64,000 nucleotides of DNA. Source: Candidatus Zixiibacteriota bacterium. GTDB lineage: Bacteria > RBG-13-66-14 > B26-G2 > WVWN01. Both the position numbers and the translations under genes were made by a program. The DNA is taken from contig JAUWLW010000007.1 of the NCBI GenBank assembly GCA_030613505.1, positions 6,360 to 70,359 on the forward strand. The letters are read 5' to 3'. Positions 15,218-51,869 of this stretch are shown piece after piece. Each line of letters begins with the position of its first letter. The stretch's first letter is position 1. Under the pieces are notes generated by a model that saw nothing but the letters and a program-made list of their open reading frames with translations, had not been told where the DNA came from and ran no database searches.

Positions 15218-15607
15218 TTGCAAGATTCGGCGACGAACGGCGGTATACGCGTCACTCCGTTCAAACGGATGGCGTACGTCCTCTCCGGCTTAGCGTACAA
15301 CCGGCACGTGGGGCCGGTCGTGCTTGCCGTCGTAGTCGGCCTCGCCGCGATCGGCTTCCGCGAGCTGGTCCGTTTTTTCAATTTCATTTTACTGGAACGC
15401 GCCTGGGCCGAGGCTACGCCGCCGTACGGCCGCGCTACGTTGCCCGTGATTACCGGCGGCGGCGGATTGGTAGTCGGCCTACTCGTACACTATCTCGCCC
15501 CGGAGGCGAAAGGCTCGGGCATACCGGACGTTATAGGTGCCGCAAAACGGTGGGAATGTGGGCCGAAGGTCGCTAGCCCCGGCCGATCAACGGCCCTAAT
15601 ACTGTGA
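15218..15607 (+). pseudogene. Truncated ClC chloride-channel/antiporter N-terminal fragment (remnant)
   Basis: Encodes ClC helix B-D-like sequence with the selectivity-filter motif GSGIPDV (LAPEAKGSGIPDVIGA), but stops after about 110-129 aa. A full ClC is more than 400 aa. No continuation in any frame, and a CNNM gene starts at 15604. Confidence 0.4.
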
Positions 15608-16824
15608 GTAACGCCACGCTCAGCTTATTACTTTTAGCCGCCCTTTCGGCCGGCGCGTTGTTTTCCGTTGCCGAGAGCGCGTTGTTTTCTCTGGGAAGCG
15701 TCCGGTTGCGACGGATGAAGCTGCGCCGCAGGCTTACGGCCCCTCTCGTGCGTTCTTTTCTGGTCCGGCCTCGCCAACTCCTCGTGACGGTGGTTATCGG
15801 CAATATGTTCGCGCTGGCCGCGGCCGCTTCTCTTGCGACGGCGTTGGGCGTCCGCGTTAATCCGCTGTACGGGCCGGCCATAGCCGCGGCCGTCACGACG
15901 GTCATAGTGTTCGTATTTGCCGAAACCCTTCCCAAAACGTTAGGCGTCGCCTGGCCTGAAAAAGGCGCGGCTTTAACCTCGCCGTTCCTCAAGCTCGTAT
16001 TCTGGGTTTTATACCCGTTGAACCGGGCCGCGCTCGCCTTAACCGATTTCTTGGCAGGGCGGCCGCAACGGCGGAGTTTGGACCCGGGCGTAGAGGATAT
16101 CTACGGCCTGCTCAGAGAGAGCGAGGCCGGAGGTATTTTGGACGACGTCGAGAGAGAAATGATCGAGCGGGTGGTGGCGTTCGCGGACCGCACGGCGGGG
16201 GAGATTGCAACCCCCCGCACGAAGATATTCGCCCTCAACGCCGATACAACCTTTCAGGAGGCAGCGCGTACCGTCGCGGATTCGCCGTACGCCCGCATAC
16301 CAGTTTACGAAGATAATCTCGAGAACGTAATCGGTATTCTCTACGTCAAGGATATTTTGCTCGCCGGAGACGAGCCACCACCTAACCTCCGCGAGTCCGT
16401 GCGCCCCGCATATTTCGTGCCCGATAGCCAACCCGCGGTCGATCTTTTCGTCGATTTTATAAGGAACCGTACGCACATAGCGCTGGTCGTAGACGAGTAC
16501 GGCTCGCTAGACGGTTTAGTAACGATGACGGACGTTCTCGGGGAGATAATCGGCGAACCGGCGCAACCCGTCAAGTACGTCGGCGCGAGGCGGTTTATCG
16601 TCGCGGCCGACACGGACCTCGACGATTTCAACGATTTAACGGGTTCCAACCTCCAGGACGAAGATGCGGAGACTTTGGCCGGGTATCTATTGAACCGGTT
16701 CGGCCGCATACCGGCCGTAGGCGAGGAGTACCGCGAGGGCGACCTTAAATTTACGGTCGAGGCTGCGGAACCACATCGGTTAACCGAAGTTATGGTCGAA
16801 AAAGCCCGAGGGTTGGAGGCTTAG
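15604..16824 (+). CDS. CNNM/CorC-HlyC family transporter (DUF21 TM domain, CBS pair, CorC_HlyC)
   Basis: 406 aa with a GTG start and the canonical DUF21 N-terminus, then CBS pair and C-terminal transporter-associated domain. Confidence 0.85.
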   Translation: MSNATLSLLLLAALSAGALFSVAESALFSLGSVRLRRMKLRRRLTAPLVRSFLVRPRQLLVTVVIGNMFALAAAASLATALGVRVNPLYGPAIAAAVTTVIVFVFAETLPKTLGVAWPEKGAALTSPFLKLVFWVLYPLNRAALALTDFLAGRPQRRSLDPGVEDIYGLLRESEAGGILDDVEREMIERVVAFADRTAGEIATPRTKIFALNADTTFQEAARTVADSPYARIPVYEDNLENVIGILYVKDILLAGDEPPPNLRESVRPAYFVPDSQPAVDLFVDFIRNRTHIALVVDEYGSLDGLVTMTDVLGEIIGEPAQPVKYVGARRFIVAADTDLDDFNDLTGSNLQDEDAETLAGYLLNRFGRIPAVGEEYREGDLKFTVEAAEPHRLTEVMVEKARGLEA

Positions 16825-18066
16825 TTGGGGATAATCTACCTACTACTAGTAATAGCGTTATTGTTCGCCGCCGGGTTTTTTTCGTCGGCCGAGACGGCGG
16901 TCTTGGCGGCCAACCGTATGCGGTTGCGGCACCTCGCCGCCGTGGGCAACCGCCGCGCGGCCCGCGTCTTGTCGTTTCTGGAAAAACCAGACACCTTTCT
17001 CACGTCCATCCTATTTGGCAACAACGTTTCGTTGGTCGTCGCGACGTCGCTCTTAACCGTATTGATCGCCCGTTATTCGGGCGAGGCCGCGAGCGTCGTC
17101 GTTGCGACGCTCGCCATGACGGCCCTCCTAACCATATTTTCCGAAATTATCCCCAAATCGGTCGTCCTCGAGGACGCGGATTATTTCGCCATGTCCTTCG
17201 CGCCCGTCATCGGCTTTCTGGAGACGTTGTTTAAGCCCGTGGTTTGGGCCACCAACGTCGTCGCCGGCGGGTTGCTCGGCCTGGTGCGCGTTCGGGCGGA
17301 GCGGCTGCCGTTCGCGACGCGGGAGGAGCTGCGCGCCATACTCACGTCCCGGCAGCCGCGGACCAGGACCGAAATCGTCCAGCGCCGCATGATACGGCGC
17401 ATCTTCGGTTTCGGCGAAACGACGGCGAAGGACGTTATGGTGCCGCTCGCCGACGTAGTCGCGTTACCGGAAACGGCGACCAAGAAGGACATCGTCGCGG
17501 CGTTGGGGCTAAGCGGCTTCTCGAGCTACCCCGTTTATAGAGTTCGCCGCGAGGATATCGTAGGCGTCGTCGTGGCGCGCGATTTCACCACGTCACCCGC
17601 GGATGCACCCGTAAAAACCAACCTATGGATGCCGTTGTTCGTTTCAACCGGGGCAAGTATCGAGACCCTCCTGCCGCGCCTGGCGAAGCGGCGAGTAGAT
17701 ATGGCCGTAGTCCGAAACGAGAGCGGCCGCGCGGTCGGCATAGTGACCGAGGAGGACATCGTCGAAGAGGTGGTAGGGGAGATCGAGGACGAATATAATT
17801 GGGGGTCGCAAGGGTTGATCCGTCACGGCGACGGTTATGCCGCGGACGCCCGCTTGGCGGTAAACTATTTTAATGAACGAATGCCGGTGCCGTTGCCGCG
17901 AGGGGATTATATTACGGTGGGCGGTTTTCTGGCCTCGCGGTTGGGGCGGGTGCCCAAATCCGGCGACGAATACGTTTGGCCGCCGTACCGTTTCCGGGTT
18001 TTGAGGGCTACGCCGCGGGCGGCGCGTCTTATCAGCGTTGAGACCCTTAAGGCGAACGGTAACTAG
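16825..18066 (+). CDS. CNNM/CorC-HlyC family transporter, tandem paralog
   Basis: 413 aa with the same architecture; the TTG start immediately abuts the upstream stop (zero gap). Confidence 0.85.
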   Translation: MGIIYLLLVIALLFAAGFFSSAETAVLAANRMRLRHLAAVGNRRAARVLSFLEKPDTFLTSILFGNNVSLVVATSLLTVLIARYSGEAASVVVATLAMTALLTIFSEIIPKSVVLEDADYFAMSFAPVIGFLETLFKPVVWATNVVAGGLLGLVRVRAERLPFATREELRAILTSRQPRTRTEIVQRRMIRRIFGFGETTAKDVMVPLADVVALPETATKKDIVAALGLSGFSSYPVYRVRREDIVGVVVARDFTTSPADAPVKTNLWMPLFVSTGASIETLLPRLAKRRVDMAVVRNESGRAVGIVTEEDIVEEVVGEIEDEYNWGSQGLIRHGDGYAADARLAVNYFNERMPVPLPRGDYITVGGFLASRLGRVPKSGDEYVWPPYRFRVLRATPRAARLISVETLKANGN

Positions 18067-21023: not shown

Positions 21024-21410
21024 ATGGACCGCAAACTAGTAGGCCGATGTGGTAAATTTTGCGGCGAATGCCGGATTTATATTGCCGCTCACGCCGACGA
21101 TCCCCAGACGGTCACCGAACTCGCCCGCGAAATGGGCGTCGAGCCCGAACGTATAAATTGCACTGGATGCCAGGGCCCCGCCGAAACTTGTTATAACGCC
21201 CAATGTAAGATCGCCGTCTGCCTCGACGAAAGGGGCTACCGTTATTGCGCGCAATGTGCCGAGATAAACGACTGTACCAAGTACGCCCAAAATAACGTTG
21301 AGTTCGACGGCCGTCCCAAAATCTACTCTAATCAATTAAAGGCCTGGGGCGAGGAACGCTGGTTGAGGTTCCACCTCGGCGACGCCGGCGAAGGTCCCGA
21401 CGAGGATTAG
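21024..21410 (+). CDS. DUF3795-like Cys-rich protein
   Basis: GRCGKFCGECRIY N-terminal motif and multiple CxxC pairs; 128 aa. Confidence 0.6.
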   Translation: MDRKLVGRCGKFCGECRIYIAAHADDPQTVTELAREMGVEPERINCTGCQGPAETCYNAQCKIAVCLDERGYRYCAQCAEINDCTKYAQNNVEFDGRPKIYSNQLKAWGEERWLRFHLGDAGEGPDED

Positions 21411-21428
21411 CACCGAGGAGTTACAGGT

Positions 21429-21689
21429 TTGGCCCGCAACGCGGATGGGAACCAGGGGCCCGGCCTGGTTGGACGTTGTGGCCTATTTTGCGGAAGCTGC
21501 GCTATTTACGCCGATTTGGATGAAAGGTACACGGGTATAAAAAGCCGCAACTTAACGCGGCGGCGGGAGCTCGGCGACGCGGCGTGGCTGGCTGAGCAAC
21601 GCGCCGAACGCGCGTGCAGCCGGTGCGGTCGGCCCTTAATATACGGCGACGACGAGTGCGCCTACTGCGGCGCGACGAGGACGGCGTAA
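21429..21689 (+). CDS. DUF3795-like Cys-rich small protein (paralog of the upstream gene)
   Basis: GRCGLFCGSCAIY parallels the upstream gene; CSRCGRP and CAYCG pairs; 86 aa. Confidence 0.55.
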   Translation: MARNADGNQGPGLVGRCGLFCGSCAIYADLDERYTGIKSRNLTRRRELGDAAWLAEQRAERACSRCGRPLIYGDDECAYCGATRTA

Positions 21690-21691
21690 GA

Positions 21692-22165
21692 ATGTCAAGG
21701 CCGGGACGGGAAATTGAAGACGTCGACGCGCTCGCCAAAGCCGCCGTTAACCTCTTCTGCGAAGGTTTCAATTGAGCGGAAGCCGTGGCGACCGCGGTGA
21801 GCGGTTTCTTCGGCGCCGGCGAAAGTTGTTTACCCCGTGTCGCCACCTGCTTCGGTGCTGGTCTGGGCCGGCGGGGTGAGATATGCGGCGCCTTGGCCGG
21901 AGCGTTAATTGCGGTCGGTTTACGGCACGGGAGGCGTGAGGGCGAAGGGGACGAGGCGAAAGAACGGTCCTACGAGCGCGCCGCGTACGTGGTCGGGGCC
22001 TTCCGCGAACGCTTCGGCACGATCCTGTGCCGCGAGTTGATCGACCTGGATTTAAGCGAACCGGAAGGGCGGGAGACTTACCAGCGTAAAAATATCCGAG
22101 ACAAGTACTGCGTCGATTACGTGACGGCCGCGGTAAAGGCGGCTTACGAGGCAATCGGCTCTTAA
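21692..22165 (+). CDS. C_GCAxxG_C_C-family putative redox protein with an in-frame TGA (candidate selenocysteine, U28)
   Basis: ATG at 21692 (2 nt after the upstream stop) gives MSRPGREIEDVDALAKAAVNLFCEGFN-[TGA at 21773-21775]-AEAVATAVSGFFGAGESC...GEICGALAGALIAVGL...ILCRELI...KYCVDYV. The TGA falls at the family's first conserved Cys (N-C-A-Q-A-V consensus). A SECIS-like hairpin lies at 21782-21814. The track only calls the downstream part from GTG 21785. Confidence 0.5.
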
Positions 22166-22213
22166 CGGTCGCACTTGAGCGCAAATAGCCGCCGGGGGGC
22201 GGCTTTTAAAATA

Positions 22214-23509
22214 ATGGTCGCCGCAAGCTTGTGGTTCACGGATTTAATCGTTCGCAAACGCGACGGCAAGGCCGTCGCCGACGACGATTGGCGCCGTTTC
22301 GTAGAAGCGCTCGGAGCCGGCGAGCTCCCCGATTACCAGATATCAGCGCTTCTCATGGCCGTATACTTCCGGGGAATGACCGTCGAGGAAACGGCGGCGT
22401 TGACGGCGGCCATGGCCGCTTCGGGCGAACAATTAGTGCTCGACGAGGGACCGTACGTCGATAAACATTCGACAGGCGGCGTGGGCGATGCTGTAACGCT
22501 CGTTGCCGTGCCCTGGGCGGCGGCTTGCGGGGCACGGATAGCTAAGCTCTCGGGCCGTAGCTTGGGACATACGGGCGGCACCGTCGACAAACTGGAAGCC
22601 ATCCCCGGTATAAACCTATCGCTCACCGCCGAGGAGCTAAAAGAGCAAGCGAACCGCGTTGGGTGCGCCGTCGCCGAAGCGCACGCCGTTGCGCCCGCGG
22701 ATGAAATCATCTACGCGCTCCGGGACGCCACGGCTACGGTGGAGGCGTTACCCTTAATGGTCTCCAGCATATTGAGCAAAAAACTCGCCGGCGGAGCTCC
22801 CGCTTTCGTCTTCGACGTCAAAGCGGGTAGGGGAGCCTTCGCCAAAGAAGAGAATTACGCTCGCGAGCTCGGCGGTAGTTTGATCGCCGCGGCTAAAGCG
22901 TCCGGTCGGAAGGCCGTCGCCGTAATCACGTCCATGGACCAGCCGTTGGGGCGCACCGTGGGTAACGCGCTCGAGGTCGCGGAGGCGGTTGAGACGTTAC
23001 AGGGCCGGGGCCCCGACGACTTGCTCGAGGTTTCGGCTGTGATCGCCGCCGAGATGCTGACCGTGGCGGGCATCGCCGGCCCGGAAGAAGCGCGACGCCG
23101 CTTGGAAGCGACCCTTGAGAAAGGGGAGGCTTTCGCGAAGCTCGACGAGATGGCGCGCGCCCAGGGTGCCCCCGCCGAATGGTGGACTCGCCTTCCGGAA
23201 GCGGCGAAGACGGCTCCCGTGAAAGCCGAACGGGGAGGGTACGTATCGGGTTTGGACGCCTTCGCCGTAGCCCGGGCGGCCAACACGCTTGGGGCGGGCC
23301 GGCAGGTAAAAGAGGACGTCGTTGACCCGGCGGTCGGCGTCGTCCTGCACAAGAAGGCAGGGGAACCGGTATCGGCCGGCGACGTGTTGATGACCCTTCG
23401 CTACAACGACGACGAGCGCTTGCGCCGGTCCCTCGAATTCGCGCGAGTCGCCTTCGACGTCGGCGAAAAGCCTACGCCGCGTCCGTTAATACTCGGGGTA
23501 TTGCGATAG
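22214..23509 (+). CDS. Thymidine / pyrimidine-nucleoside phosphorylase
   Basis: HSTGGVGD motif, SGRSLGHTGGTVDKLE, and the overall family-2 phosphorylase architecture. Start taken at MVAASLW (the track ORF starts at 22175). Confidence 0.85.
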   Translation: MVAASLWFTDLIVRKRDGKAVADDDWRRFVEALGAGELPDYQISALLMAVYFRGMTVEETAALTAAMAASGEQLVLDEGPYVDKHSTGGVGDAVTLVAVPWAAACGARIAKLSGRSLGHTGGTVDKLEAIPGINLSLTAEELKEQANRVGCAVAEAHAVAPADEIIYALRDATATVEALPLMVSSILSKKLAGGAPAFVFDVKAGRGAFAKEENYARELGGSLIAAAKASGRKAVAVITSMDQPLGRTVGNALEVAEAVETLQGRGPDDLLEVSAVIAAEMLTVAGIAGPEEARRRLEATLEKGEAFAKLDEMARAQGAPAEWWTRLPEAAKTAPVKAERGGYVSGLDAFAVARAANTLGAGRQVKEDVVDPAVGVVLHKKAGEPVSAGDVLMTLRYNDDERLRRSLEFARVAFDVGEKPTPRPLILGVLR

Positions 23510-23533: not shown

Positions 23534-25483
23534 ATGTTTAAATTACGCCCCATCCTAGTCGTAGCAGTTATCGGCGGCGGCTCGCTGGCTGCTTCTTTCA
23601 CTTTCTTCTACCATCAAGAAGGACACCGCGAGGGTTTATTTGCTTTGGCGAGCCACGGCGTCCATCTCATTCTGTTCGCCGCGCTGGCTTGGTCGGCTTA
23701 CTTCGTGGGCAGGGCGGCGTCCCGATACGTATTTCGCCAAAGCCGGACCTATTGGGAGGTCGACGTTGCGTTGGGGTTCGCCGTCTTCGGCACGGCCGCC
23801 TTTGCGTTGGCCGCAACCCACCTTCTTTACGCGTGGCTTGTCCGGGGCGTGGTATTACTTGTTATTACGCTGTCGGCGCCGCTATGGTGGCGCTACGTCC
23901 GCGACGTACCGGCTTCCGTACGACGGAAGTGGAGCGGCGCCTCGGCCGGCGTCGTCGCCGTGGTCGCCGCCTCCATTCCATTCGCGCTCGCGGTCTTGGT
24001 GCGGGTGGGTTTGCCGCCCGTTGAATGGGACGTTTTGGTTTACCATCTCTATTTACCCAAGGTCTTCGCCGAGGCTCACAGCTTCGTCTACCTGCCGCGC
24101 CTAGTATATGCGTCTATGCCGCTCGGCGCCGAGATGATATTCACGTGGGCGTACCTGTGGGACGGCTTGGGCGCCGCGGCGGCCGTCGCGCCGCTCCTGA
24201 ATATCTTATTAGTCGTAGCAACGTGGCGGTTGGCGCGCCGCTACGTTGACGACCTTTGGGCCGCGGCGGCGGCGGCCTTGCTTCTCTTCACTCCCAGCTT
24301 CGCAACCGCGGTCGGTTCGTCGTACGTAGACTTCGTCGTCGGCGCCTTCGTCGTAATGGCTTTAGTCGCTTATTTAAACGGCTTCCGGCGTTACGCCGAC
24401 GCGGCCTTGGCGGGCGTATTACTCGGCGCGGCATTGGCCGTAAAGTATACTGGGATATACGCGGTCATCGCGCTTCTACCCGTAATCTTCGTGGACGTTA
24501 TCAAGCGGAAGTTGCCGCTCCGTTACGCGGCGGCGTTTCTGATCACCGCCTTCGCCGTCGTCTCCCCGTGGCTCGTCAAGGCTCTAGTCGAACGCGGCAA
24601 TCCTGTCTTCCCGGTTTTGTACGGCGTCTTCGGCGGCCACGACCTGTCGCCCGAGGCGGCGGCGGGAATCCTCCCAGCGTTACGGCGCATCGGCATGGGC
24701 CGCAGCGCGGCCGATTATCTACTGCTCCCATACCGCGTTTCGGCCCTCGGCGGCAGCGGCTACGGCCGTTTCGCCGGCAGCCTCTGGCCATTTAGTTTTC
24801 TTATCGTACCATTTGCGCTGGTCTGGTTCCGGCGATGGCGGTTGCTGACCTTTACGGTCCTCTATTTCGCCGCGTGGGCTTTTATGTCACAGCAACTCCG
24901 TTTTTTAAGTGCGGCGTACGCGACGCTTGCCGTGTTGTCGGCGGGTGTTTTCGCCGCTGCAGCCGACGTCTTCAAAGGTCAGGCGCGCGCCGTAAGCCGC
25001 TTCGCATTCGTCGGTTTAATATTGATATTGGGTTACGTACTTAACGTGCCGAACATCTTAACGGGTTTGGGGAGTTTACATTACTACGAGAAAGGCGGCG
25101 CCGAAGCGTACCTGCGCGAAAACGCGCCGTGCTACGCGGCCGACGAGTTCGTCAACGATGAACTCCCCAAAGACGCAGTCATCCTGTTGCTGTTCGACAA
25201 TTGCCTCTTATACCTGAAACGTCCTGCTATCTACGACTCGTTTTTAGACGCGTCGGTAACGATATACGAAATCCAGAAGTTAAAAAGCCCGGCTGGGGTG
25301 GCGGCATACGTTGACGGGCTCGGCGCGACCCACATTATGACCTATCGCGTCGGCGCGGCGTTCTTTTGGAATTATTACGAGCGGTCGACGCGGCGCTTAT
25401 GGGAGGCGTACCTGGCGCGGTACACGACGGCCATATACGACGACGGTTATTACGAAATACGCGCGCTCGAGCGCCGCGGGTGA
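23534..25483 (+). CDS. Polytopic membrane protein, GT-C-fold glycosyltransferase-like (ArnT/PMT/DUF2029-like)
   Basis: 649 aa with about 12 or more TM helices, conserved YHLYLPKVFAEAHSFVYLPRLVYASMPLGAEMIFTWAY and a C-terminal soluble domain. Confidence 0.75.
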   Translation: MFKLRPILVVAVIGGGSLAASFTFFYHQEGHREGLFALASHGVHLILFAALAWSAYFVGRAASRYVFRQSRTYWEVDVALGFAVFGTAAFALAATHLLYAWLVRGVVLLVITLSAPLWWRYVRDVPASVRRKWSGASAGVVAVVAASIPFALAVLVRVGLPPVEWDVLVYHLYLPKVFAEAHSFVYLPRLVYASMPLGAEMIFTWAYLWDGLGAAAAVAPLLNILLVVATWRLARRYVDDLWAAAAAALLLFTPSFATAVGSSYVDFVVGAFVVMALVAYLNGFRRYADAALAGVLLGAALAVKYTGIYAVIALLPVIFVDVIKRKLPLRYAAAFLITAFAVVSPWLVKALVERGNPVFPVLYGVFGGHDLSPEAAAGILPALRRIGMGRSAADYLLLPYRVSALGGSGYGRFAGSLWPFSFLIVPFALVWFRRWRLLTFTVLYFAAWAFMSQQLRFLSAAYATLAVLSAGVFAAAADVFKGQARAVSRFAFVGLILILGYVLNVPNILTGLGSLHYYEKGGAEAYLRENAPCYAADEFVNDELPKDAVILLLFDNCLLYLKRPAIYDSFLDASVTIYEIQKLKSPAGVAAYVDGLGATHIMTYRVGAAFFWNYYERSTRRLWEAYLARYTTAIYDDGYYEIRALERRG

Positions 25484-25675
25484 GCCGCATCGTTCCAAGC
25501 CGAGAAGAGCCGCGGCGTGTGCACGGCGGCCGTGATGCTAAAACATTTAGACCCGTCCGCTCCGTGAAACGCGGGCGGTGTCGAACACGATGGGGCTTGA
25601 TATCGCCCGACGTAATCGCTATAATCTTAACGCTGACGTAAGTTTTTTTAAAACGGCGGTATTCGAGGAGAAGCG

Positions 25676-27646
25676 ATGTTGCGAAAATTGCAGGCTGTCG
25701 CCGCGGCGGTAGTCGTCACCGCGAGCGTGTTAGCGTCGGTGGCCGCGTTTTTCTACTATCACCAGAATCGCCTCGACATATTAACGGTTATCGCTAACGA
25801 GGTCGTGCACGTTTTCCTCTTCTTCGCGCTGGCATGGGCGGCGTATTTCGTGGGTCGGCTTGTCTACCGCTCAGTCTTTCGCCAACGCCAACCGTATTGG
25901 GAAATCCAGCTCGCGCTGGGTTTTATAATATTCGGCTTGGCCGCTTTCGCCTTAGCCGCCGTCCATTTGCTATACCCTTGGGTCGTCCGTGGCATCGTTC
26001 TAGTCATACTCGGGTTATCGGCCCCCCTCTTTTGGCGTTACGTTAACGAATTCGGAAATTTTTTAAAGGACCGATTGTCGTCTTTAACCCTCGGGCCGCT
26101 CGTCGTCGCGGCCGCCGTAGCGCCGCTTGTCGCCGCAGCCCTTATACGCGTCGGCCTGCCGCCGTTCGAGTGGGACTCCCTCGTCTACCATATCTACGTT
26201 CCTAAAATTTACGCCGCGGCTCACGGCTTCGTGTACTTACCGCGTCTAGCGTATTCGTCCATGCCGTTGGGCCCGGAGATGATGTTCACGTGGGCGTACG
26301 TATGGGACGGCGTCGGCTGCGCCGCCGCGGTGGCGCCGTTGATAAATTTCTTAATGGTCGTCGTGACTTGGCGGTTGGCGCGGCGGTATGTGGACAACCT
26401 ATGGGCCACGGCCGCGGCCGCCTTTCTCTTTATTACCCCCTCTTTTTTAGTTTATTTCTCCTCGGCGTACGTGGATATGATATTGGGCGCTTTTGCGTTA
26501 ATGTCGTTCTTTATTTATTTACGGGGGTTTAGAAGTTATGGCGAAGCGGCGCTCGCGGGCGTCCTCTTGGGCGCCGCGTTGGGCGTAAAATATACCGGCG
26601 TGTACGCGTTGATCGGCTTGGCCCCCATTTTAATTACCGATTTATTCCGTCGTCGCGCTTCTCTCCGCCACGTGGCCGTATTTCTCACCGTGGCCTTTTT
26701 TACGGTATTACCCTGGTTGGGGAAAGCGTTCGTAGAACGGGGAAACCCGGTATTCCCATCGCTTTACAATATTTTCGGCGGCCGGGACTTATCGCCCGTA
26801 GCCGCGGAAAAAGTCTTGGTATGGCAAAAATCGATAGGAATGGGGCGCGACCCCATAGATTACGTACTTTTACCGTACCGCGTATCTTTCCAAGCTGACT
26901 CCGGCTACGAAAAGTTCGACGGCTTTCTGTTGCCCTTTAGCCTTGTCGGCGTATTGCTATCCTTAATTTGGTTCCGGCGGTGGCGGTTGATAACGTACAC
27001 GGCTTTTTACTTCGTCGCGTGGGCGTTTTTAGCGTCTCAACAATTAAGGTTTTTAAGCGCGGCCTTCGCGACGTCCACGATTTTAACCGTGGGAGTTTTC
27101 GCACATATAACGGCGTCTTTTAGAAGCTCGGTGCGTTCGGCGTTGACGTTTATTTTGGTCGGTTCGGGAATAACCTTCGGATACGCCGTCACGGCGTTTG
27201 GGGTCTGTTACTACGTCCCTGACGCGTTGAAATATCTCATGAGCCGCGACGTCGACAGTTATTTATTACGAACAGTACCCGTATATCCCGCAGACAAATT
27301 CGTGAACGAAAATTTACCCGAGGACGCCGTAATTTTGATGATTTTTAACGACCATTTGCTATACTTGGAAAGAAAGGCTATATACGACTCGTTTTTCGAG
27401 GCGTCTGAAACGTTGATCCACGTAGCGACGCTAAACACGCCGTCAGAGGTCGCGGATTACGTCGACGAGCTGGGGGCAACGCACATTTTCACGGGCCAAT
27501 TCGCCACGAGCTATTTCTGGAGTCATTACGATCCCGCAACGCGTGTCCTTTGGCAAGCGTACCTCAATGGGTATACCGACGTGATTTACGACGACGGCGA
27601 AATCGAGATTCGTGTCATAAAGAACCGCGCGGCGACTCGTTTTTAA
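25676..27646 (+). CDS. GT-C-like membrane protein, tandem paralog of 23534..25483
   Basis: 656 aa, collinear with the upstream paralog (YHIYVPKIYAAAHGFVYLPRLAYSSMPLGPEMMFTWAY). A possible -10 TATAAT lies at 25619-25624. Confidence 0.75.
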   Translation: MLRKLQAVAAAVVVTASVLASVAAFFYYHQNRLDILTVIANEVVHVFLFFALAWAAYFVGRLVYRSVFRQRQPYWEIQLALGFIIFGLAAFALAAVHLLYPWVVRGIVLVILGLSAPLFWRYVNEFGNFLKDRLSSLTLGPLVVAAAVAPLVAAALIRVGLPPFEWDSLVYHIYVPKIYAAAHGFVYLPRLAYSSMPLGPEMMFTWAYVWDGVGCAAAVAPLINFLMVVVTWRLARRYVDNLWATAAAAFLFITPSFLVYFSSAYVDMILGAFALMSFFIYLRGFRSYGEAALAGVLLGAALGVKYTGVYALIGLAPILITDLFRRRASLRHVAVFLTVAFFTVLPWLGKAFVERGNPVFPSLYNIFGGRDLSPVAAEKVLVWQKSIGMGRDPIDYVLLPYRVSFQADSGYEKFDGFLLPFSLVGVLLSLIWFRRWRLITYTAFYFVAWAFLASQQLRFLSAAFATSTILTVGVFAHITASFRSSVRSALTFILVGSGITFGYAVTAFGVCYYVPDALKYLMSRDVDSYLLRTVPVYPADKFVNENLPEDAVILMIFNDHLLYLERKAIYDSFFEASETLIHVATLNTPSEVADYVDELGATHIFTGQFATSYFWSHYDPATRVLWQAYLNGYTDVIYDDGEIEIRVIKNRAATRF

Positions 27647-29836: not shown

Positions 29837-31210
29837 ATGAAAATTATCCAGAGACTGGAACAACGCCAAATAATATCGCAACGACTCCAGCAGTCGCTCC
29901 GCCTCCTCACGTTGAACAATCTGGAAATAGAGGATGCCATCGAAGAAGAATTGGAAACCAACCCGGTCTTGGAATGGGAACCGAGCCTCTCCGTCGGCGA
30001 GAGCGTTCGACCTTCTCTTGCTGAGCGCGTAGAGAATATCGACTGGCAGGATTACTTCGAAAACGCGTCGCGGGGTGGATATTTTGCCGAGAGCGAAGAT
30101 GAGTTCGACCAATTCGCGTCGGCCCCCGGCACGCCCGTTACGTTGGCCGAGTATCTCATGCTTCAACTCGAAGTCTCGGGCGTCACCGATTCGGACTTCG
30201 AACTGGCGGCGGGCATTATTTCGGCGCTCGACCTCGACGGATATTTACGCGTTCCAGTAGCGTCCGTCGCCGAGGAGATGGGTGTAGAGCCGAGCGAAGC
30301 AGCGCGTGTTTTAATCAAAATCGTCCAGAACCTCGAACCCCGCGGGGTGGGCGCGCGCGATCTTAGAGAAGCGCTATTCTTACAATACCAAGAGGTTAGC
30401 GACGAGGCGCCGCCGCTGGCAGGCGTAATAATCGACAAATATTTAGAACAAACCGTAACCAAATCACCGTCGGAGCTAGCGGCCAAATTTAAGGTATCAC
30501 AGCCGGAAGTGGAAGAAGCGATCGATTTCATAAAAAGCCTCGAGCCTCGCCCGGGCAGGGCTTTCGGCGGCGAGACAAACCCGTCCCTAATTCCCGACGT
30601 TCGCATCGAGCTTGTCGCGGGAAACGTCGAAATTACGCTGTTGGACGACAGGGTCGGGCGCCTATACATAAGCCCACGCTACCGCGCGTTGCTGGCCGGC
30701 GACGGCGACCCGGACCAGGAAACCGTTCGCTTTTTAAAAAACCGTTTGACGGCCGCGGCGTCGTTCATCCGCGCCATCCACCAGCGACGCCGCACCCTTG
30801 AGCGGGTGGTCGCCGCTATATTTAAACGCCAACGCGAGTTCCTCGTCGTCGGCGAGCCCGGCCTTAAACCCCTTACGATGGAGGAAATAGCGGAACAAGT
30901 CGGTTTCCACGTCTCTACGGTCTCCCGGGCCGTCGCGCGAAAAGTGGCGGATACGCCCCCGGGCGTTTATCTCTTGAAGTACTTCTTTACGGGACGTGTT
31001 CAGGCGGCCGAAGGGCCGGTATCGGTGAAACGCGTCAAAGCCGTACTGGAAGATATTATCGAGGACGAGAATAAAAACACGCCGCTGTCGGACGAAGAAT
31101 TGGCCGCGGAGCTATCCGAACGCGGCATACGCGTTGCGAGGCGGACGGTCGCGAAGTATCGCCGAGAGCTTAAAATCCCCGGAAAATATGGTAGGATGCA
31201 GAGAGTGTGA
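29837..31210 (+). CDS. rpoN: RNA polymerase sigma-54 factor
   Basis: 457 aa; the N-terminal Gln/Leu-rich region I and the C-terminal RpoN box ARRTVAKYRRELKIP. Confidence 0.9.
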   Translation: MKIIQRLEQRQIISQRLQQSLRLLTLNNLEIEDAIEEELETNPVLEWEPSLSVGESVRPSLAERVENIDWQDYFENASRGGYFAESEDEFDQFASAPGTPVTLAEYLMLQLEVSGVTDSDFELAAGIISALDLDGYLRVPVASVAEEMGVEPSEAARVLIKIVQNLEPRGVGARDLREALFLQYQEVSDEAPPLAGVIIDKYLEQTVTKSPSELAAKFKVSQPEVEEAIDFIKSLEPRPGRAFGGETNPSLIPDVRIELVAGNVEITLLDDRVGRLYISPRYRALLAGDGDPDQETVRFLKNRLTAAASFIRAIHQRRRTLERVVAAIFKRQREFLVVGEPGLKPLTMEEIAEQVGFHVSTVSRAVARKVADTPPGVYLLKYFFTGRVQAAEGPVSVKRVKAVLEDIIEDENKNTPLSDEELAAELSERGIRVARRTVAKYRRELKIPGKYGRMQRV

Positions 31211-32531
31211 CGTAGCCATTGTGGGCGGCGGCCCGGCGGGTTACCCGGCCGCGGTACGTGCCGCCCGGCTCGGCGCCGACGTCGTTTTAGTGGAGACGGG
31301 TCGTTTGGGCGGGACTTGCCTTAACGTCGGCTGTATTCCAACGAAGTTTTATTGCCGGCGCAGCGCTACCGATACCCGTCCCTGGCGCGACGTCGTCGCC
31401 GATAAGGACAAACTGGTCGACGAGCTCGTCGCGGGAATTGAATTCCTGTTCGCAAAGCGCGGCGTAGAGTTCGTACGTGGGCGGGGTCGTCTGGCCGGCG
31501 ACGGCGAGGTTGCCGTCGACGGCGACGCGAATTTCGTAATAAAAGCGCGGAAAGGGATATTGTACGCGCCCGGTTCCGTGACGCTGTCTCTTCCGGTGAT
31601 GCCGGTCGACCACCGGCTCGTCCTGGAGAGCGACGACCTTGTCGATTCGCCGCTCGATTTTAAAAGCCTCGTAGTCGTAGGCGGCGGCGCCATAGGGCTC
31701 GAGTGGGCTACTATATGCCGACGGCGCGGCGTCGAAGTGACCGTGGTAGAGATGATGCCTCAGGTTCTACCGGGGCTCGACGCGGACGTCGCGCGGCGCC
31801 TTGCCGGCCTTATGAAACGCGCAGGCGTCAAGATAATGTTGGACGCCAAAGTAGAGAAGCTGGAAAAGCGCGGCGACGGCGTCGCCGTCTGCCTATCGGA
31901 CGGCCGGGTGCTGGAGGCGGAAAGGGCGCTGTTCGCCGTGGGCCGGCAGGCGAATATCGACGAAGAGGAACTTCGGTCGGTAGGCGTAGAGAGCGACTGT
32001 CGCCGCATCAAAACGACACCGGCGATGGCGACCACGGCCGAAGGCATCTGGGCCGCGGGCGACGCCGCCGGCGTCGGGCCGATGTTGGCGCACGTCGCCA
32101 CTCGGCAAGGCTTAGCGGCGGTGGAGAATATGCTGGGCGGCCACAAAGAGATGGACTACGACCGCGTACCTTGGGCCGTCTTCTCGGACCCGGAGGCGGC
32201 GGGCGTGGGTTTGAACGCGAACCACGCCCGGGAACGCGGCATCGCCGCGCGGGAGGGGAAGGCCGACTACCGGGCGTTGGGGCGCCCGCGCGCCGACGGT
32301 TTCGTCGACGGCTTTTTTAAAATCCTGGCGGTGGAAGAGGACGGTAAGATATTGGGCGCCCACGCCGTCGGCCACGACGCCGCGGAAATCGTCCAAATCG
32401 TGTCCGCGGCTATGGCGTGCAACGCGAGCGTGACTGAGCTTGGTGAATTCATAGCCATACACCCAACGTACGCCGAGCTGGTCGCGGAAGCCTTGGAGGA
32501 CTGGCAGGGCTTGGCGACGCATAAGCCTTAA
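31188..32531 (+). CDS. lpd: Dihydrolipoyl dehydrogenase
   Basis: Redox-active disulfide motif GGTCLNVGCIPTK, an FAD-binding GGGPAGY, and NAD-binding GGGAIGLE. Start at MVGCRECDVAIVGGG (overlaps the rpoN end by 23 nt; the track ORF starts at 31134). Confidence 0.85.
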   Translation: MVGCRECDVAIVGGGPAGYPAAVRAARLGADVVLVETGRLGGTCLNVGCIPTKFYCRRSATDTRPWRDVVADKDKLVDELVAGIEFLFAKRGVEFVRGRGRLAGDGEVAVDGDANFVIKARKGILYAPGSVTLSLPVMPVDHRLVLESDDLVDSPLDFKSLVVVGGGAIGLEWATICRRRGVEVTVVEMMPQVLPGLDADVARRLAGLMKRAGVKIMLDAKVEKLEKRGDGVAVCLSDGRVLEAERALFAVGRQANIDEEELRSVGVESDCRRIKTTPAMATTAEGIWAAGDAAGVGPMLAHVATRQGLAAVENMLGGHKEMDYDRVPWAVFSDPEAAGVGLNANHARERGIAAREGKADYRALGRPRADGFVDGFFKILAVEEDGKILGAHAVGHDAAEIVQIVSAAMACNASVTELGEFIAIHPTYAELVAEALEDWQGLATHKP

Positions 32532-32534
32532 ACT

Positions 32535-33419
32535 TTGCGAACGTACGAGAGCGAACGTATTCCCGCGTGGTTGCGACGGCCCGTAACCGACCGCGTCGGC
32601 CGGGGGCCCGCGCGCCGCGCCGTTGCGGAGGTGAACACCGTATGCCAGGAAGCCCGGTGTCCGAACCGCGGCCGGTGTATGGGGGAGGATAGAACGGCTG
32701 CTTTTCTGCTAATGGGGCCCGGTTGTTCGCGCGATTGCCGGTTTTGCTCGGTGTCGCACGGCCCTAAATTCCTTGACCCGGGGGAGCCGGAGAAAGTCGC
32801 CCGGGCCGCGGCCGCACTCGAGCTGGAGTACGTCGTCCTCACCTCCACTACCCGCGACGACCTGGCCGACGGCGGCGCGGACCACGTAACCGCGACCGTC
32901 GAAGCCGTCCGCGCTACGGTGGCCGACGCCGACGTCGAAGTATTGGCGCCGGACTTCGCGGGGACTCGCCGCTCCGTAAACCGGGTGGCGTCGGCGCCGA
33001 TAGCGGTGTTCGGCCACAACGTCGAGACCGTACCGCGTTTGTACGGCGGCGTTCGGCCGGGAGCCGAATACAAACGGTCGCTAAACGTATTAGCGTGGGC
33101 GGCGGAAGCCGGCGCGTTGACGAAGTCGGCCTTGCTAGTAGGTCTGGGCGAAGAGAAGGATGAAGTTTGCGCCGTTTTACGGGATTTACGGTCGGTCGGC
33201 GTTTCGATCGTCGCGATAGGGCAGTACTTCAGGCCGACCACGCGCCAACTAGCGGTAGCTCGCTTCTGGGGACCTCGAGCTTTCGAGGAACTCGAGGCGA
33301 CGGCACGCACGATGGGCTTCTTGGACGCGGCTTGCGCTCCGTACGTTCGTTCCTCGTACCAGGCCGGTAGCATATATCGCCGCGTAAACGGCGCCCGCCC
33401 GAAATCCGCCGCCGCTTGA
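32535..33419 (+). CDS. lipA: Lipoyl synthase
   Basis: Auxiliary-cluster motif CQEARCPNRGRC and radical-SAM cluster motif CSRDCRFC. Confidence 0.9.
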   Translation: MRTYESERIPAWLRRPVTDRVGRGPARRAVAEVNTVCQEARCPNRGRCMGEDRTAAFLLMGPGCSRDCRFCSVSHGPKFLDPGEPEKVARAAAALELEYVVLTSTTRDDLADGGADHVTATVEAVRATVADADVEVLAPDFAGTRRSVNRVASAPIAVFGHNVETVPRLYGGVRPGAEYKRSLNVLAWAAEAGALTKSALLVGLGEEKDEVCAVLRDLRSVGVSIVAIGQYFRPTTRQLAVARFWGPRAFEELEATARTMGFLDAACAPYVRSSYQAGSIYRRVNGARPKSAAA

Positions 33420-33498
33420 AAATAATACCGTGGCTATGTTAAACTAGGTTCCGGTGACGCCGATTTTTACCCTTTGCCACCGTAATATTTAGCATTAG

Positions 33499-34053
33499 AT
33501 GGAGGTCGTACACGTGGGGTTGCAGATTACCGGGAAGCGCGTCGACGTTACGGACGCGATGAAAATTTATATCGGTAAAAAGATAGGTAAAATTACGAAA
33601 AGGCTTAGGGAAGTCCAGGATGTCATCGTAACGTTGAGGATAGAGAGGTACCATCATATCGCCGAGATTACTATCGTGGCCGACTATTTGACGATAAGGG
33701 GCGAGGGCAATACCGCCGACATGTATTCGTCCATAGATATAGCTTCCAACAAGATCGAAAAACAGATAAGGAAGTACCGCAGTAGGATCCAGAGCCGCCG
33801 CGTTGCACGTCCCGAAAAAATACGCGAGGCCGTTATGACGGTATACGACCATCAGGCCATGGCGAGGGAACAGGACACGCGCGTTATCGTCAGCGTTGAT
33901 AAGATACCGGTGAAACCTATGACCGTGGAGGAAGCGGTCATGGAAATGGATCTAATGAGCCAGGATTTTTTAGTATTTAAAAACGCAGAAACGGATGAGG
34001 TAAGCGTTATCTACCACCGCCGCGACGGCAACATCGGCTTAATTGAACCTTAA
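33499..34053 (+). CDS. hpf: Ribosome hibernation-promoting factor (long form)
   Basis: 184 aa; an N-terminal RaiA/HPF fold and a C-terminal dimerisation extension. Conserved position between rpoN and ptsN. Confidence 0.85.
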   Translation: MEVVHVGLQITGKRVDVTDAMKIYIGKKIGKITKRLREVQDVIVTLRIERYHHIAEITIVADYLTIRGEGNTADMYSSIDIASNKIEKQIRKYRSRIQSRRVARPEKIREAVMTVYDHQAMAREQDTRVIVSVDKIPVKPMTVEEAVMEMDLMSQDFLVFKNAETDEVSVIYHRRDGNIGLIEP

Positions 34054-34113
34054 GGCCGGGACGCTGCCGTCGATGCGCCCTTCGGGCGTACTGAAATGTG
34101 AGGTGACTTAGCC

Positions 34114-34572
34114 GTGAAGATTTCGGATTTCGTCGATCCAAGTGGTATAAAATTGGAGATAGCAGCCCAGGATAAAGACGGTGTCCTCCGTGAGCTCGTC
34201 GCGCTAGCTGCCGAAACCGGCAAAATAAACGACGAATTAGCGATCTTGAAAGCGGTGCGGGAGAGGGAAAACCTGTGCAGTACCGGGTTTGAGAACGGCG
34301 CCGCGATACCGCACCCGCGCCAAGGCCATCCCGACGTCGTCAAAGAATTGGTCGCCGTGTTCGCCCGCTCGTCAGAGGGAATCGACTTCGAAGCGCTCGA
34401 CGAGAAGCCCGTACATTTATTCTTTCTCCTCTGCGCGCCCACTGACAGCGAACATCTCCGGGCGCTGGCTAAGCTTTCGCGCTTCCTCAAAAAGGAAGCC
34501 GTTCGCAAAAGGCTCTTGGAGGCGAAAACGCCGGACGATATATTGGCGGCAATAAAAGAGGAAGAGGTCTAA
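34114..34572 (+). CDS. ptsN: PTS EIIA-Ntr-type nitrogen regulatory protein
   Basis: 152 aa fructose/mannitol-type EIIA fold with the active-site region FENGAAIPHPR; GTG start. Confidence 0.85.
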   Translation: MKISDFVDPSGIKLEIAAQDKDGVLRELVALAAETGKINDELAILKAVRERENLCSTGFENGAAIPHPRQGHPDVVKELVAVFARSSEGIDFEALDEKPVHLFFLLCAPTDSEHLRALAKLSRFLKKEAVRKRLLEAKTPDDILAAIKEEEV

Positions 34573-34579
34573 GGTCCGG

Positions 34580-35605
34580 ATGGCGAGACGCCGGAAGGAG
34601 ATCGTCAACGTCGAAGAATTATCTCTGGGCGGCACGAAGCCGCCCGTCGGCGTAACGGTCGGCGAAATGTTCGCCGAGATGGAGGCGACCCTCAAGTTAT
34701 CCTCGGTCGAGGACAATGGCGGGTTCGACCGGCGCGTGCGCGGCACGGAAATTAACCGGCCGGGTTTGGCCATTGCGGGTTACTTCGATCGTTTTTCGCA
34801 TCGCCAGGTGCAGGTCCTCGGCATGACGGAGCTCTCGTACTTGGCCAGTATAACCGAAAGAAAACGCTCGGATATATTCAACAAAATCACGTCGTACGAC
34901 GGTTTACCTTGCTTCGTTGTCGCGCGCGGACGGAGGCCGCCGCCGGCCCTAAAAGTCTCCGCACGTAATCGGGGAATACCCGTAGCCGTGTCGGGGCGAC
35001 GCACCACTGACGTAATAGCACTCCTCTCCGACCACCTCCGCGACAAGTTCGCCCCCCGGCTGGCCTTTCACGGCGATTTGCTCGACGTCTACGGCGTCGG
35101 CGTTCTTATCCTCGGCCCCGCCGCGGTCGGTAAAAGCGAATGCGCCTTGGATCTAATCGGCCGCGGCCATCGCATCGTTGCCGACGACGTGGTGTACGTG
35201 CGACGCCGCATAACGGGAGAACTCGTCGGCGATACCAAGGAGAGTATTCGCGAACATATAGAAATACGCGGTTTAGGCGTACTGAACGTCAAGCAATTAT
35301 TCGGCATCCGTGCCGTCCGCAAGTCGAAGAACGTGGAGCTTATCGTAAAGATCGAATTGCTGGACCCCAAAGAGGATTACGACCGTACGGGGCTCGACAG
35401 GACGGTCGTCAACATCCTCGGCATTGAAGCCCCTTTCATCGTTATTCCAGTGGTACCGGGTAAAAGCATTTCGTCGCTCGTAGAAGTCGCGGCGCTGGAC
35501 TATCTATTGAAGCGTTACGGCTTCGACGCCGCCCGCGTTTTTAACGAAAAACTACGCGCCGAAATCGCCACCAACTACCAGCCGGATAAAAAAGGAAAAC
35601 CATGA
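34580..35605 (+). CDS. hprK: HPr kinase/phosphorylase
   Basis: P-loop GPAAVGKSE and a C-terminal catalytic domain with the HIEIRGLGVLNV signature. Confidence 0.9.
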   Translation: MARRRKEIVNVEELSLGGTKPPVGVTVGEMFAEMEATLKLSSVEDNGGFDRRVRGTEINRPGLAIAGYFDRFSHRQVQVLGMTELSYLASITERKRSDIFNKITSYDGLPCFVVARGRRPPPALKVSARNRGIPVAVSGRRTTDVIALLSDHLRDKFAPRLAFHGDLLDVYGVGVLILGPAAVGKSECALDLIGRGHRIVADDVVYVRRRITGELVGDTKESIREHIEIRGLGVLNVKQLFGIRAVRKSKNVELIVKIELLDPKEDYDRTGLDRTVVNILGIEAPFIVIPVVPGKSISSLVEVAALDYLLKRYGFDAARVFNEKLRAEIATNYQPDKKGKP

Positions 35606-36024
35606 CCGGAATCATAATCGTCGCCCACGGCGAGTTGGCCGGCGAGCTAGTAAATTCGGTCGCAATGATAATGGGACGCGTTCCCTTGTTGCGGGCCGTA
35701 GGTCTCGGCAGCGACCAGAGCCTGGACGACTTAAAGCGCGAAATTGAAGAGGCGTGGCAAGAGCTCGAGCGCGGAGGCGCCCGACAGATCCTGGTCTTGG
35801 TCGACATGTTCGGCGGCTCTTGCTCGAACGTAGCGGCGCGTCTCGTCTGCGACAGCGAACCGGGGCAAATCGCCGTCGTAACGGGCGTTAACCTTCCCAT
35901 GGTTTTGGAGGCGTCCATCGACCGCGACCTGTATCAATTGAAGGATTTAGTGGATAAGGTAGTGAAAGCCGGTAGGAAATCCATCGTCGACGTCCGGGCC
36001 GTTCTGGCCGAAAAACTCCGTTAA
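35602..36024 (+). CDS. PTS mannose/fructose/sorbose-family EIIA component
   Basis: MTGIIIVAHGELAGEL (active-site His10-type EIIA-Man N-terminus); 140 aa. Confidence 0.8.
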   Translation: MTGIIIVAHGELAGELVNSVAMIMGRVPLLRAVGLGSDQSLDDLKREIEEAWQELERGGARQILVLVDMFGGSCSNVAARLVCDSEPGQIAVVTGVNLPMVLEASIDRDLYQLKDLVDKVVKAGRKSIVDVRAVLAEKLR

Positions 36025-36047
36025 GTGACGTCGAGCGTCCGTTAAAG

Positions 36048-36533
36048 ATGGGCGTCTTATTGTACAGGGTAGACGACCGTTTGATACACGGCCAGGTCGT
36101 CGTCGGTTGGGGGCGTTTTCTAAAGATCAATTCTATACTGGTATGCAGTGAACGGGTAGCGGACGACGAATTGGCTCGTACGATGATGGAGATGGGCGCG
36201 CCGGCGGACGTCAAGGTAGAGGTGCTACGGCCGAAGGAGGCCGCGGCGAAGCTCAACCGCGACGCCTTCGCCGAGCGCGACGCCATCGTACTTTTCGAAA
36301 CGCCGGCCGACGCCCTCTACCTTTTAAATATGAACGTAAAAATCGAGAAGTTAAACATCGGCGGTATGCACTTCCGCCCCGGGAAACGGCAGATAATGGA
36401 AAGCGTTTCGGTGGACAAAGAAGACTGCCGGGCGCTCCACGAACTCTCCGCCCGGAACGTCGAGGTTTACTTCCAGATGGTACCGCAAGCCCGGCCGGTA
36501 GAGATCATTTCGAAGCTGCCGTGCGACCTATGA
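36048..36533 (+). CDS. PTS mannose-family EIIB component
   Basis: LYRVDDRLIHGQVVVGW is the EIIB-Man active-site His motif. Confidence 0.85.
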   Translation: MGVLLYRVDDRLIHGQVVVGWGRFLKINSILVCSERVADDELARTMMEMGAPADVKVEVLRPKEAAAKLNRDAFAERDAIVLFETPADALYLLNMNVKIEKLNIGGMHFRPGKRQIMESVSVDKEDCRALHELSARNVEVYFQMVPQARPVEIISKLPCDL

Positions 36534-38611: not shown

Positions 38612-38615
38612 GGAA

Positions 38616-39332
38616 ATGTTAGAGGGGTTCGTATTATTGGCGTGCGCGGAACGGGCGATTTGCGTCGCGTTCGTCGGCGCTCTATTAGGGTTGGATAACA
38701 TCGCCATAGGCCAATTTATGTTGGCGCAACCGGCGGTAGGCGCCGTTTTAGTCGGCTATATGGTGGGCGAGCCGTTGTTGGGCGTGTGGGCGGCGTTAAC
38801 GTTCCAACTTCTATGGTTGGGCCAGATCCCCGTCGGCGCATACGTTCCGCCAAGCGCACCGATTACGGCCATTGCCGCGGTCGGTTTGGCCGGGCCCTCG
38901 GCGGCGCCGTTGCCGGCTCGAGCGGTCGCGGCGGCGTTCCTCGCTATACCGGTCGGCGTATTGGCGGGCAAGCTGGATTTTTGGATTAAAAGCCGAAACG
39001 TCGGCATTTTGCACCGGAGCGAGAACGATTTGCTAGACGGTAGGCCGCTCGCGCTCGGCGGCGCGGTTATAAAAGGCGTGGCGAATTTTTTCTTGAAAGA
39101 CTTTTTCCTCCTGCTTGTGGCAATCTTCGTCGGCTCGGCGTTGCTCACGTTGGCGTTAAGGCACATAACGCCGGGTTGGTACCCCGGCTTGGAGCTCGCG
39201 TTCGTAATTTCGCCCGCCGTGGGCATCGGCGCCGCGTTGAAGGTTTACTGGAAGGCCCGGAACCTGGCGGCTTTCGGCGTCGGCGCCGTAGTCGCGGCCG
39301 CCGTCGCCTTTATATTCTCGTTCTTAATATGA
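38616..39332 (+). CDS. PTS mannose-family EIIC component
   Basis: 238 aa polytopic membrane protein with EIIC-Man-like topology and a Gly-rich loop. Confidence 0.8.
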   Translation: MLEGFVLLACAERAICVAFVGALLGLDNIAIGQFMLAQPAVGAVLVGYMVGEPLLGVWAALTFQLLWLGQIPVGAYVPPSAPITAIAAVGLAGPSAAPLPARAVAAAFLAIPVGVLAGKLDFWIKSRNVGILHRSENDLLDGRPLALGGAVIKGVANFFLKDFFLLLVAIFVGSALLTLALRHITPGWYPGLELAFVISPAVGIGAALKVYWKARNLAAFGVGAVVAAAVAFIFSFLI

Positions 39333-40108: not shown

Positions 40109-40113
40109 GTCTT

Positions 40114-40383
40114 ATGGCGGCGATTCGTAAAAAGGTTACGGTTCAGCAAAAGTACGGCTTACACGCGCGCCCGGCGTCGTCGTTCGTGAAGCTTGCCCGT
40201 GTATTCGAAGCCGACATAATACTGGAAAAGAATGGCGAGCGCGTCAACGGCAAATCTATTATGGGCGTCATGATGTTGGCCGTGTCCCGGGGCGAAACGG
40301 TATACCTGGAAGTGGATGGTCCCGACAGGGAGCGCGCGTGCGAACGGCTTAAATCATTTCTGGAAGACGGTACCGACGAGTAA
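40114..40383 (+). CDS. ptsH: Phosphocarrier protein HPr
   Basis: GLHARPAS active-site His15 motif and a Ser46 region (NGKSIMGVMML); 89 aa from MAAIRKK. Confidence 0.85.
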   Translation: MAAIRKKVTVQQKYGLHARPASSFVKLARVFEADIILEKNGERVNGKSIMGVMMLAVSRGETVYLEVDGPDRERACERLKSFLEDGTDE

Positions 40384-40389
40384 CTAGAC

Positions 40390-51750: not shown

Positions 51751-51785
51751 AAACGGTCGCACGTCTACCGTGCGGCCGCGAATAT

Positions 51786-51859
<74 letters not shown>

Positions 51860-51869
51860 AAAATGTAAA

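Follow-up and report, generated by a model that had tools for sequence, protein, structure and literature searches.

Can a TGA triplet that lies inside an otherwise uninterrupted bacterial reading frame be a codon for selenocysteine (Sec) rather than a stop? The question is raised by a gene of the C-GCAxxG-C-C family on contig JAUWLW010000007.1 (Candidatus Zixiibacteriota, assembly GCA_030613505.1), of which a stretch of 64,000 nucleotides, referred to here as the window, was analysed. In the list of open reading frames (ORFs) the gene begins at GTG 21785 and encodes a product of 126 amino acids. A longer frame of 157 codons runs from ATG 21692-21694 to TAA 22163-22165, and its sole interruption is a TGA at 21773-21775. 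The ATG is placed 2 nucleotides past the TAA (21687-21689) of the upstream ORF, and a Shine-Dalgarno-like GAGGA can be read from the sequence at 21677-21681, 10 nucleotides 5' of the ATG. On the basis of the frame, hidden Markov model matches and homologs, the full coding sequence would occupy 21692-22165 on the forward strand and encode a C-GCAxxG-C-C family selenoprotein of 157 amino acids plus stop, with Sec as residue 28. The read-through peptide across this residue is ...LFCEGFN-U-AEAVATAV... (LFCEGFN-U-AEAVATAVSGFFGAGESCLPR). The comparisons described below make it highly probable that the TGA is decoded as Sec, and that the gene is a genuine Sec-recoding candidate that has been mis-annotated as a truncated protein.

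The TGA codon and its cysteine counterparts

With a cysteine placed at the TGA, the read-through protein matches Pfam PF09719 at 87.9 bits (cutoff 27), over residues 26-153 and from profile position 1, and matches TIGR01909 at 60.0 bits (cutoff 47.4). For the 126-residue version, the match starts at profile position 10 with the loss of the first 9 positions, and is still above the Pfam cutoff. The TGA, the proposed Sec codon, stands at the first signature cysteine of both profiles, as judged from TGA versus TGC or TGT in homologs. The three later signature cysteines, all on the forward strand like the TGA itself, are C65 in GEICGALAG (21884-21886), C113 in ILCRELI (22028-22030) and C140 in KYCVDYV (22109-22111). 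In the alignment of homologs, U28 and these three cysteines all fall in invariant or nearly invariant columns, that of C113 being invariant.

The same TGA is found in two further assemblies, L074 and L075, whose identity to the window is 99.5-99.6%, and is kept, with conserved flanks, in the syntenic orthologs L001/L002, L003/L009, L010/L081, L076, L077/L078, L079/L080 and L082. These close orthologs come from JGI, ENA, NCBI and Logan assemblies and share ~80-86% nucleotide identity and 71-90% amino acid identity with the window; the clade that they form together with the window comprises nine distinct TGA sequences. A survey of distant homologs, covering 65 loci from one-genome-per-species representatives, places a TGA at the exact codon in a further five: L013, on the Candidatus Coatesbacteria chromosome CP070633, L024 from Thermodesulfobacteriota, L047 from Nitrospiraceae (Nitrospirota), L054 from Anaerolineae (Chloroflexota), and L014. 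At the same site, 51 distinct other homologs carry TGC or TGT, an arrangement that reads as a classic Sec/Cys pair. With TGA recurring at this codon in five or more distant lineages, of which four have been assigned to different phyla, Sec and Cys appear to have been exchanged repeatedly at this position. The first signature cysteine is the only one that is ever TGA in the sample, for which one of the two search patterns demanded that the second signature codon be Cys, such that Sec at that position would escape. Three loci, L052 and L065 (Methanophagales/ANME-1) and L072 (Sporomusa silvacetica), have a C-terminal half that looks frameshifted or degraded; they are possible pseudogenes or assembly errors, not Sec sites.

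The database proteins of all the TGA-bearing genes are 108-126 amino acids long, as compared to 150-162 for the Cys forms. The short entries are the annotation artefact that is expected when gene callers halt at the TGA and restart downstream, in the window gene at GTG 21785. The stored entries for this gene and for its TGA-bearing relatives lose the N-terminus and with it the probable active-site residue, and such truncated entries distort family alignments and undercount selenoproteins in uncultured lineages. What the locus offers is an annotation fix and not a discovery, since the family is already known as a (computationally predicted) selenoprotein family and has been listed since 2007. 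The NCBIfam name of TIGR01909 is "C-GCAxxG-C-C family (seleno)protein". A 'Putative redox protein' selenoprotein family is described from the Olavius delta-1 symbiont, together with a SECIS (selenocysteine insertion sequence) figure (Zhang & Gladyshev 2007, PMC1976440), a 'C-GCAxxG-C-C family protein' appears in selenoprotein catalogues of 2022 and 2026, and the 2026 catalogue (PMC13188914) recognises forms 1 and 2 of the family, told apart by the position of Sec and exemplified by MGD8741185.1 and WP_012158890.1, respectively.

The initial annotation of the locus, made from the sequence alone, had traced the frame from ATG 21692 through a single TGA, with GTG 21785 as the start in the ORF list, and had described three intact later signature elements; every one of these coordinates agrees with the sequence, and C65, C113 and C140 are present. 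It had also proposed an alignment against PF09719 and a search for homologs with cysteine at the TGA. The match from profile position 1, which puts the TGA at the first signature cysteine, and the distribution of TGA in close and distant homologs with TGC or TGT in 51 others, both bear this proposal out. Its authorship did not know the family as an established selenoprotein family, a view contradicted by the TIGR01909 name, by PMC1976440 and by the 2022 and 2026 catalogues.

The hairpin downstream of the TGA

The mRNA immediately downstream of the TGA can form a conserved upper stem-loop, GACCGC-GGUGA-GCGGUU (21790-21806, forward strand), in which 21790-21795 pairs with 21801-21806, and the apical loop (21796-21800) is positioned 21-25 nucleotides after the UGA; the assignment is based on pairing in the TGA homologs. 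The extended hairpin predicted by RNAfold (21782-21814, forward strand) has in addition a lower stem, formed by 21782-21785 with 21811-21814, and middle pairs between 21787-21788 and 21808-21809, and has a minimum free energy of -24 kcal/mol.

Three comparative tests address whether such a structure goes with TGA. For the best single hairpin with a loop 14-32 nucleotides after the codon, the median energy is -19.0 kcal/mol in TGA sequences versus -12.0 kcal/mol in sequences with Cys codons (Mann-Whitney p = 1.4e-4), a comparison that is confounded by G+C content and relatedness. Energy being a weak discriminator, it was replaced by a structural and a register test. The structural criterion, at least 6 consecutive pairs closing a G-containing loop of 3-7 nucleotides that is centred 19-27 nucleotides after the first base of the codon, is satisfied by 12 of 13 distinct TGA sequences versus 7 of 50 Cys sequences (Fisher p = 2e-7), or, counted by independent lineages, by 6/6 TGA versus 7/50 Cys (p = 5e-5). 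In the fixed register, where nucleotides 18-23 pair with 29-34, the mean is 5.08 of 6 pairs for TGA sequences and 2.94 for Cys sequences, and means of 1.85-2.77 are obtained when the register is slid by 1-3 nucleotides. All six pairs are formed in 9 of the 13 distinct TGA sequences, and in none of 51 Cys sequences.

Compensatory changes are seen at pair 19-33, which is A-U, G-C or C-G, and at pairs 20-32 and 21-31, which are C-G or U-A. The window clade, L014 and L054 have a common register despite differences in the encoded amino acids; the L013 hairpin is the same but shifted by one nucleotide, and L024 and L047 have hairpins of 8-9 bp with loops slightly earlier. Four independent lineages have G-U at nucleotides 25-26 after the UGA. 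In the close clade, the synonymous changes are located in the loop (GGUGA, GGUUA, AGUAG and GGUGG) and the CCGC/GCGG core is invariant, while synonymous divergence over the hairpin codons is 0.28 as compared to a gene average of 0.55, or about half. In the closest Cys homolog (L083, protein P0003, 75% identity), the 3' arm reads GCCGUC where the window has GCGGUU, and the stem is broken. The energy, structural and register comparisons together support assignment of the hairpin as a putative SECIS element.

Termination, read-through or selenocysteine

If the TGA is indeed a Sec codon, translation would start at ATG 21692, and the stem-loop at 21790-21806 would recruit a SelB-type factor with Sec-tRNA at UGA 21773, resulting in insertion of Sec and not termination. 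The product would be a 157-amino acid member of the C-GCAxxG-C-C family with Sec as the first of its four signature cysteines.

A number of observations weigh against Sec insertion. Neither the 64-kb window nor ~1.1 Mb of flanking sequence from related loci yielded a selA, selB, selC or selD gene. The hairpin by itself is not unusually stable (z = -0.75; 40 of 200 shuffles fold as well); the fold is an ordinary one for G+C-rich sequence, and the significance of the hairpin comes only from the comparison of homologs. In that comparison, several G+C-rich Cys homologs are about equal in folding energy, an A-C mismatch is present in the stem of the TGA ortholog L076, and conservation of the lower stem among orthologs is poor. 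Lastly, there is no match to an Rfam SECIS family over 21650-21900, even at E up to 10, a result that says little because bacterial SECIS elements differ from gene to gene.

The searches for selenium machinery were of several kinds. ARAGORN predicts no tRNA-Sec, either in the window or in the 16 related loci to which it was also applied, and scans with Rfam, both window-wide and local, returned three tRNAs and chance matches only. The tRNAs of the window are two tRNA-Pro (CGG and GGG anticodons), 180 nucleotides apart at 51785-52115, and one tRNA-Arg (CCU) at 56358-56431, with no tRNA-Sec. Motif searches for SelA (SGDK..GGPQ) and SelD (G-C/U-G-C-K) over 77 sequences (1.14 Mb) gave nothing real, Pfam scans of the 20 larger unannotated ORFs of the window found housekeeping functions only (for instance PTS/HPr kinase, NadA, glycogen enzymes and sigma factors), and the genes within 10 kb on either side are unrelated to selenium. 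We infer the organism's competence for Sec from the conserved TGA and the selection seen on either side of it. Screening the window for further genes with an in-frame TGA turned up a single coding-like case, at 45860 (...LAVGP-U-MGNCDIC...), where the G+C content at third codon positions is coding-like on both sides; it was rejected as an artefact, since a radical-SAM (QueE-like) gene occupies the opposite strand there (45292-46020, reverse strand).

The simplest of the other explanations is that the TGA is a real stop, with a functional product of 126 amino acids made from GTG 21785 without the first signature cysteine, and with the upstream 27 codons being a leftover or a separate small ORF. 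Such an explanation would account for the fact that gene callers annotate a product of the 126-amino acid type in every database copy, and fits with a window that has no Sec machinery and with a short product that passes the Pfam cutoff. However, the codons upstream of the TGA behave as coding sequence. Among eight close orthologs, the ratio of non-synonymous to synonymous changes (pN/pS) is 0.39 over the 22 codons 5' of the TGA in the frame that is continuous with the downstream ORF, versus 1.47 and 0.91 in the two other frames of the same codons, and is 0.23 over the downstream 128 codons. The peptide upstream of the TGA thus appears to be under purifying selection, and only in the TGA-spanning frame. 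Both this frame and the TGA are kept in the 9 diverged orthologs and 5 distant lineages. The likely initiation sites also lie upstream: in L001, L010 and L077, TAAGGAG is found 8 nucleotides before a TTG start that is 34 codons upstream of the TGA, and Shine-Dalgarno sequences precede the upstream starts of L013 (GGAG), L024 (GAGG) and L054 (AAGGAG). In contrast, the GTG after the TGA is without a Shine-Dalgarno sequence in the close orthologs, only the distant L054 having GGAG there, and in L003, L079 and L013 the first start codon past the TGA sits 8-22 codons downstream. A protein so truncated would also miss one of four nearly invariant signature residues, and termination at this TGA is very unlikely.

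A second explanation would have the TGA read through without Sec, by near-cognate insertion of Trp or Cys or by a suppressor tRNA, and would see in the hairpin a generic stimulator of read-through. Downstream structures can stimulate read-through in other systems, and the Sec machinery of this organism is an inferred one. Generic read-through would nevertheless not predict specific alternation between TGA and Cys codons at a conserved signature cysteine, which is a hallmark of Sec, in a family already recognised as Sec-containing; nor would it predict a hairpin with the layout of a bacterial SECIS element, including the recurrent G-U in its loop. Furthermore, TGA serves as an ordinary stop in the rest of the window, where it ends 19 of 63 predicted genes, indicating a standard code in which the TGA at 21773 needs a local recoding signal. 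Read-through of this kind is most unlikely. A miscalled TGC or TGT, whether from sequencing or from assembly, would require one base change only (A to C or T), in metagenome assemblies that are error-prone; this explanation is effectively refuted by the recurrence of the TGA in ten or more independent assemblies (from ENA, NCBI, JGI and Logan), two of which are strain-level copies of this contig.

The preferred reading, that the TGA at the first signature cysteine encodes Sec with the aid of the downstream hairpin, was also the core of the initial annotation, and is upheld by the Sec/Cys pairs, by selection on the upstream codons, by covariation in the hairpin and by the independent assemblies. 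The conservation of the frame back to ATG 21692 that was described at the outset has its counterpart in the purifying selection on the TGA-spanning frame and in the Shine-Dalgarno sequences at upstream starts, and the part in recoding that was first ascribed to the hairpin is consistent with its covariation and its association with TGA rather than Cys codons. As for the structure first drawn, its stems and loop are found where it had placed them, but the upper stem is 6 bp long and the supposed '6x6 internal loop' is partly paired.

Gene neighbourhood, fold and likeness to known systems

In the close orthologs, the gene order is a GAF-HD protein, a 189-amino acid protein, a DUF3795 protein, a variable second DUF3795 protein, the C_GCAxxG_C_C gene, a pyrimidine-nucleoside phosphorylase, and two PMT_2 membrane proteins, with the DUF3795 and phosphorylase neighbours retained out to the Coatesbacteria genome. 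The upstream neighbours in the window (21024-21689, forward strand, conserved in orthologs) are a DUF3795 gene at 21024-21410 and a shorter second DUF3795-like ORF at 21429-21689. The latter is 86 amino acids long in the window and 155 in the sister species L076 (9438-9905), and is absent in L001, L010 and L077. L006 carries an in-frame fusion of a DUF3795 N-terminus with the C-terminal third of the C_GCAxxG_C_C gene (3001-3219, protein P0034). The DUF3795/C_GCAxxG_C_C junction is a hotspot for deletions and rearrangements.

Downstream of the stop codon, a GC-rich hairpin followed by TTTT (GCCGCC-GGGG-GGCGGC, 22188-22207, forward strand) is conserved in orthologs and is a probable transcription terminator, one that a terminator scan did not call because its run of only 4 T is below the threshold. 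In its longest-ORF form, which starts at TTG 22175, the next gene would run through this hairpin (22175-22216), and the called start at ATG 22214 is more plausible. Elsewhere in the window, a cluster at 29837-43091 includes genes for sigma-54 (29837-31210), a pyridine-nucleotide disulfide oxidoreductase (31134-32531), a radical-SAM protein, HPr kinase (34580-35605), a GH57 amylase-type enzyme (36521-38611), and the phosphotransferase system (PTS) proteins sorbose-type IIC (38616-39332) and enzyme I (40390-42141). There are also two tandem pairs of paralogs, at 15604-18066 (CNNM/CBS/CorC, 406 and 413 amino acids) and 23534-27646 (PMT_2 glycosyltransferase-like membrane proteins, 649 and 656 amino acids).

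The family numbers more than 5,000 database clusters, yet its label is still only 'putative redox-active'. The experimental context for the family is thin: one member is acetone-induced in Desulfococcus biacutus, and another lies in an iron-responsive operon in Bacteroides. A structure model, made for the Cys homolog P0003 that is 75% identical to the window protein, predicts an all-helical domain whose fold is that of the non-haem iron-centre domain in split-Soret cytochrome c. U28, C65, C113 and C140 most likely form a metal or Fe-S cluster site, or else a redox-active selenol-thiol site, whose reactivity Sec would tune.

With respect to recoding signals, the hairpin resembles bacterial SECIS elements (E. 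coli fdhF and the bSECISearch model) in being a stem-loop that follows directly on the UGA within the coding sequence and whose apical loop, 21-25 nucleotides away (16-37 in the model), contains G-U. Its sequence is unrelated to that of the fdhF element, and recruitment of SelB is putative in the window.

The published C-GCAxxG-C-C selenoproteins belong to the same Pfam and NCBIfam family as the window protein, and similarly have a single Sec, Cys homologs, and a stem-loop downstream of the UGA. They come from deltaproteobacteria and clostridia, whereas the lineage from which the window derives is nearest to Coatesbacteria and Zixibacteria metagenome-assembled genomes. The window's first-Cys Sec may correspond to form 1 or to form 2, for neither of which the running text of the publications states a Sec position, the alignments being in figures; a profile search of 5.8 billion proteins for the Sec position of the published forms returned no U-containing entries. 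The HUGP/GUXX-star fusion selenoprotein (NF045501) is homologous to the window protein over profile positions 11-154 (E 1.4e-18), but the window protein scores 67.3 bits against a cutoff of 325, short of membership, and is without the C-terminal extension of the 236-position architecture.

The comparison that bears most directly on function is with split-Soret cytochrome c of Desulfovibrio desulfuricans ATCC 27774 (PDB 1H21), with which only the fold of the N-terminal 'novel iron centre' domain is held in common. The second and fourth signature cysteines align with cysteines of 1H21, in GTICGALYGA and SERCGRL respectively; in sequence searches, the only PDB match was a marginal one to 1H21, and the NCBIfam split-Soret model (NF047622) matches weakly over residues 17-86, which include the Sec position, at 19.9 bits against a cutoff of 400, outside membership. 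The structure paper for 1H21 reportedly describes the centre as a [2Fe-2S] cluster with four cysteine ligands from the N-terminal domain. It is possible, though doubtful, that U28 supplies a selenolate ligand to a [2Fe-2S]-type iron centre such as that of split-Soret cytochrome c, and that Sec at the first cysteine represents a form so far uncatalogued, in a candidate-phylum lineage (near Coatesbacteria and Zixibacteria) for which the searchable literature reports no use of Sec. If so, the protein would be a natural selenium-ligated iron-sulfur protein, and it is in this idea, and in the use of Sec by an uncultured lineage, that the remaining interest of the locus lies. The likeness in fold also provides a testable idea of function for a very large family. 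Compared with the split-Soret protein, which carries a CXXCH haem motif and a cytochrome domain that the window protein lacks, the latter would be a stand-alone version of the iron-centre domain, with Sec replacing one of the cysteines.
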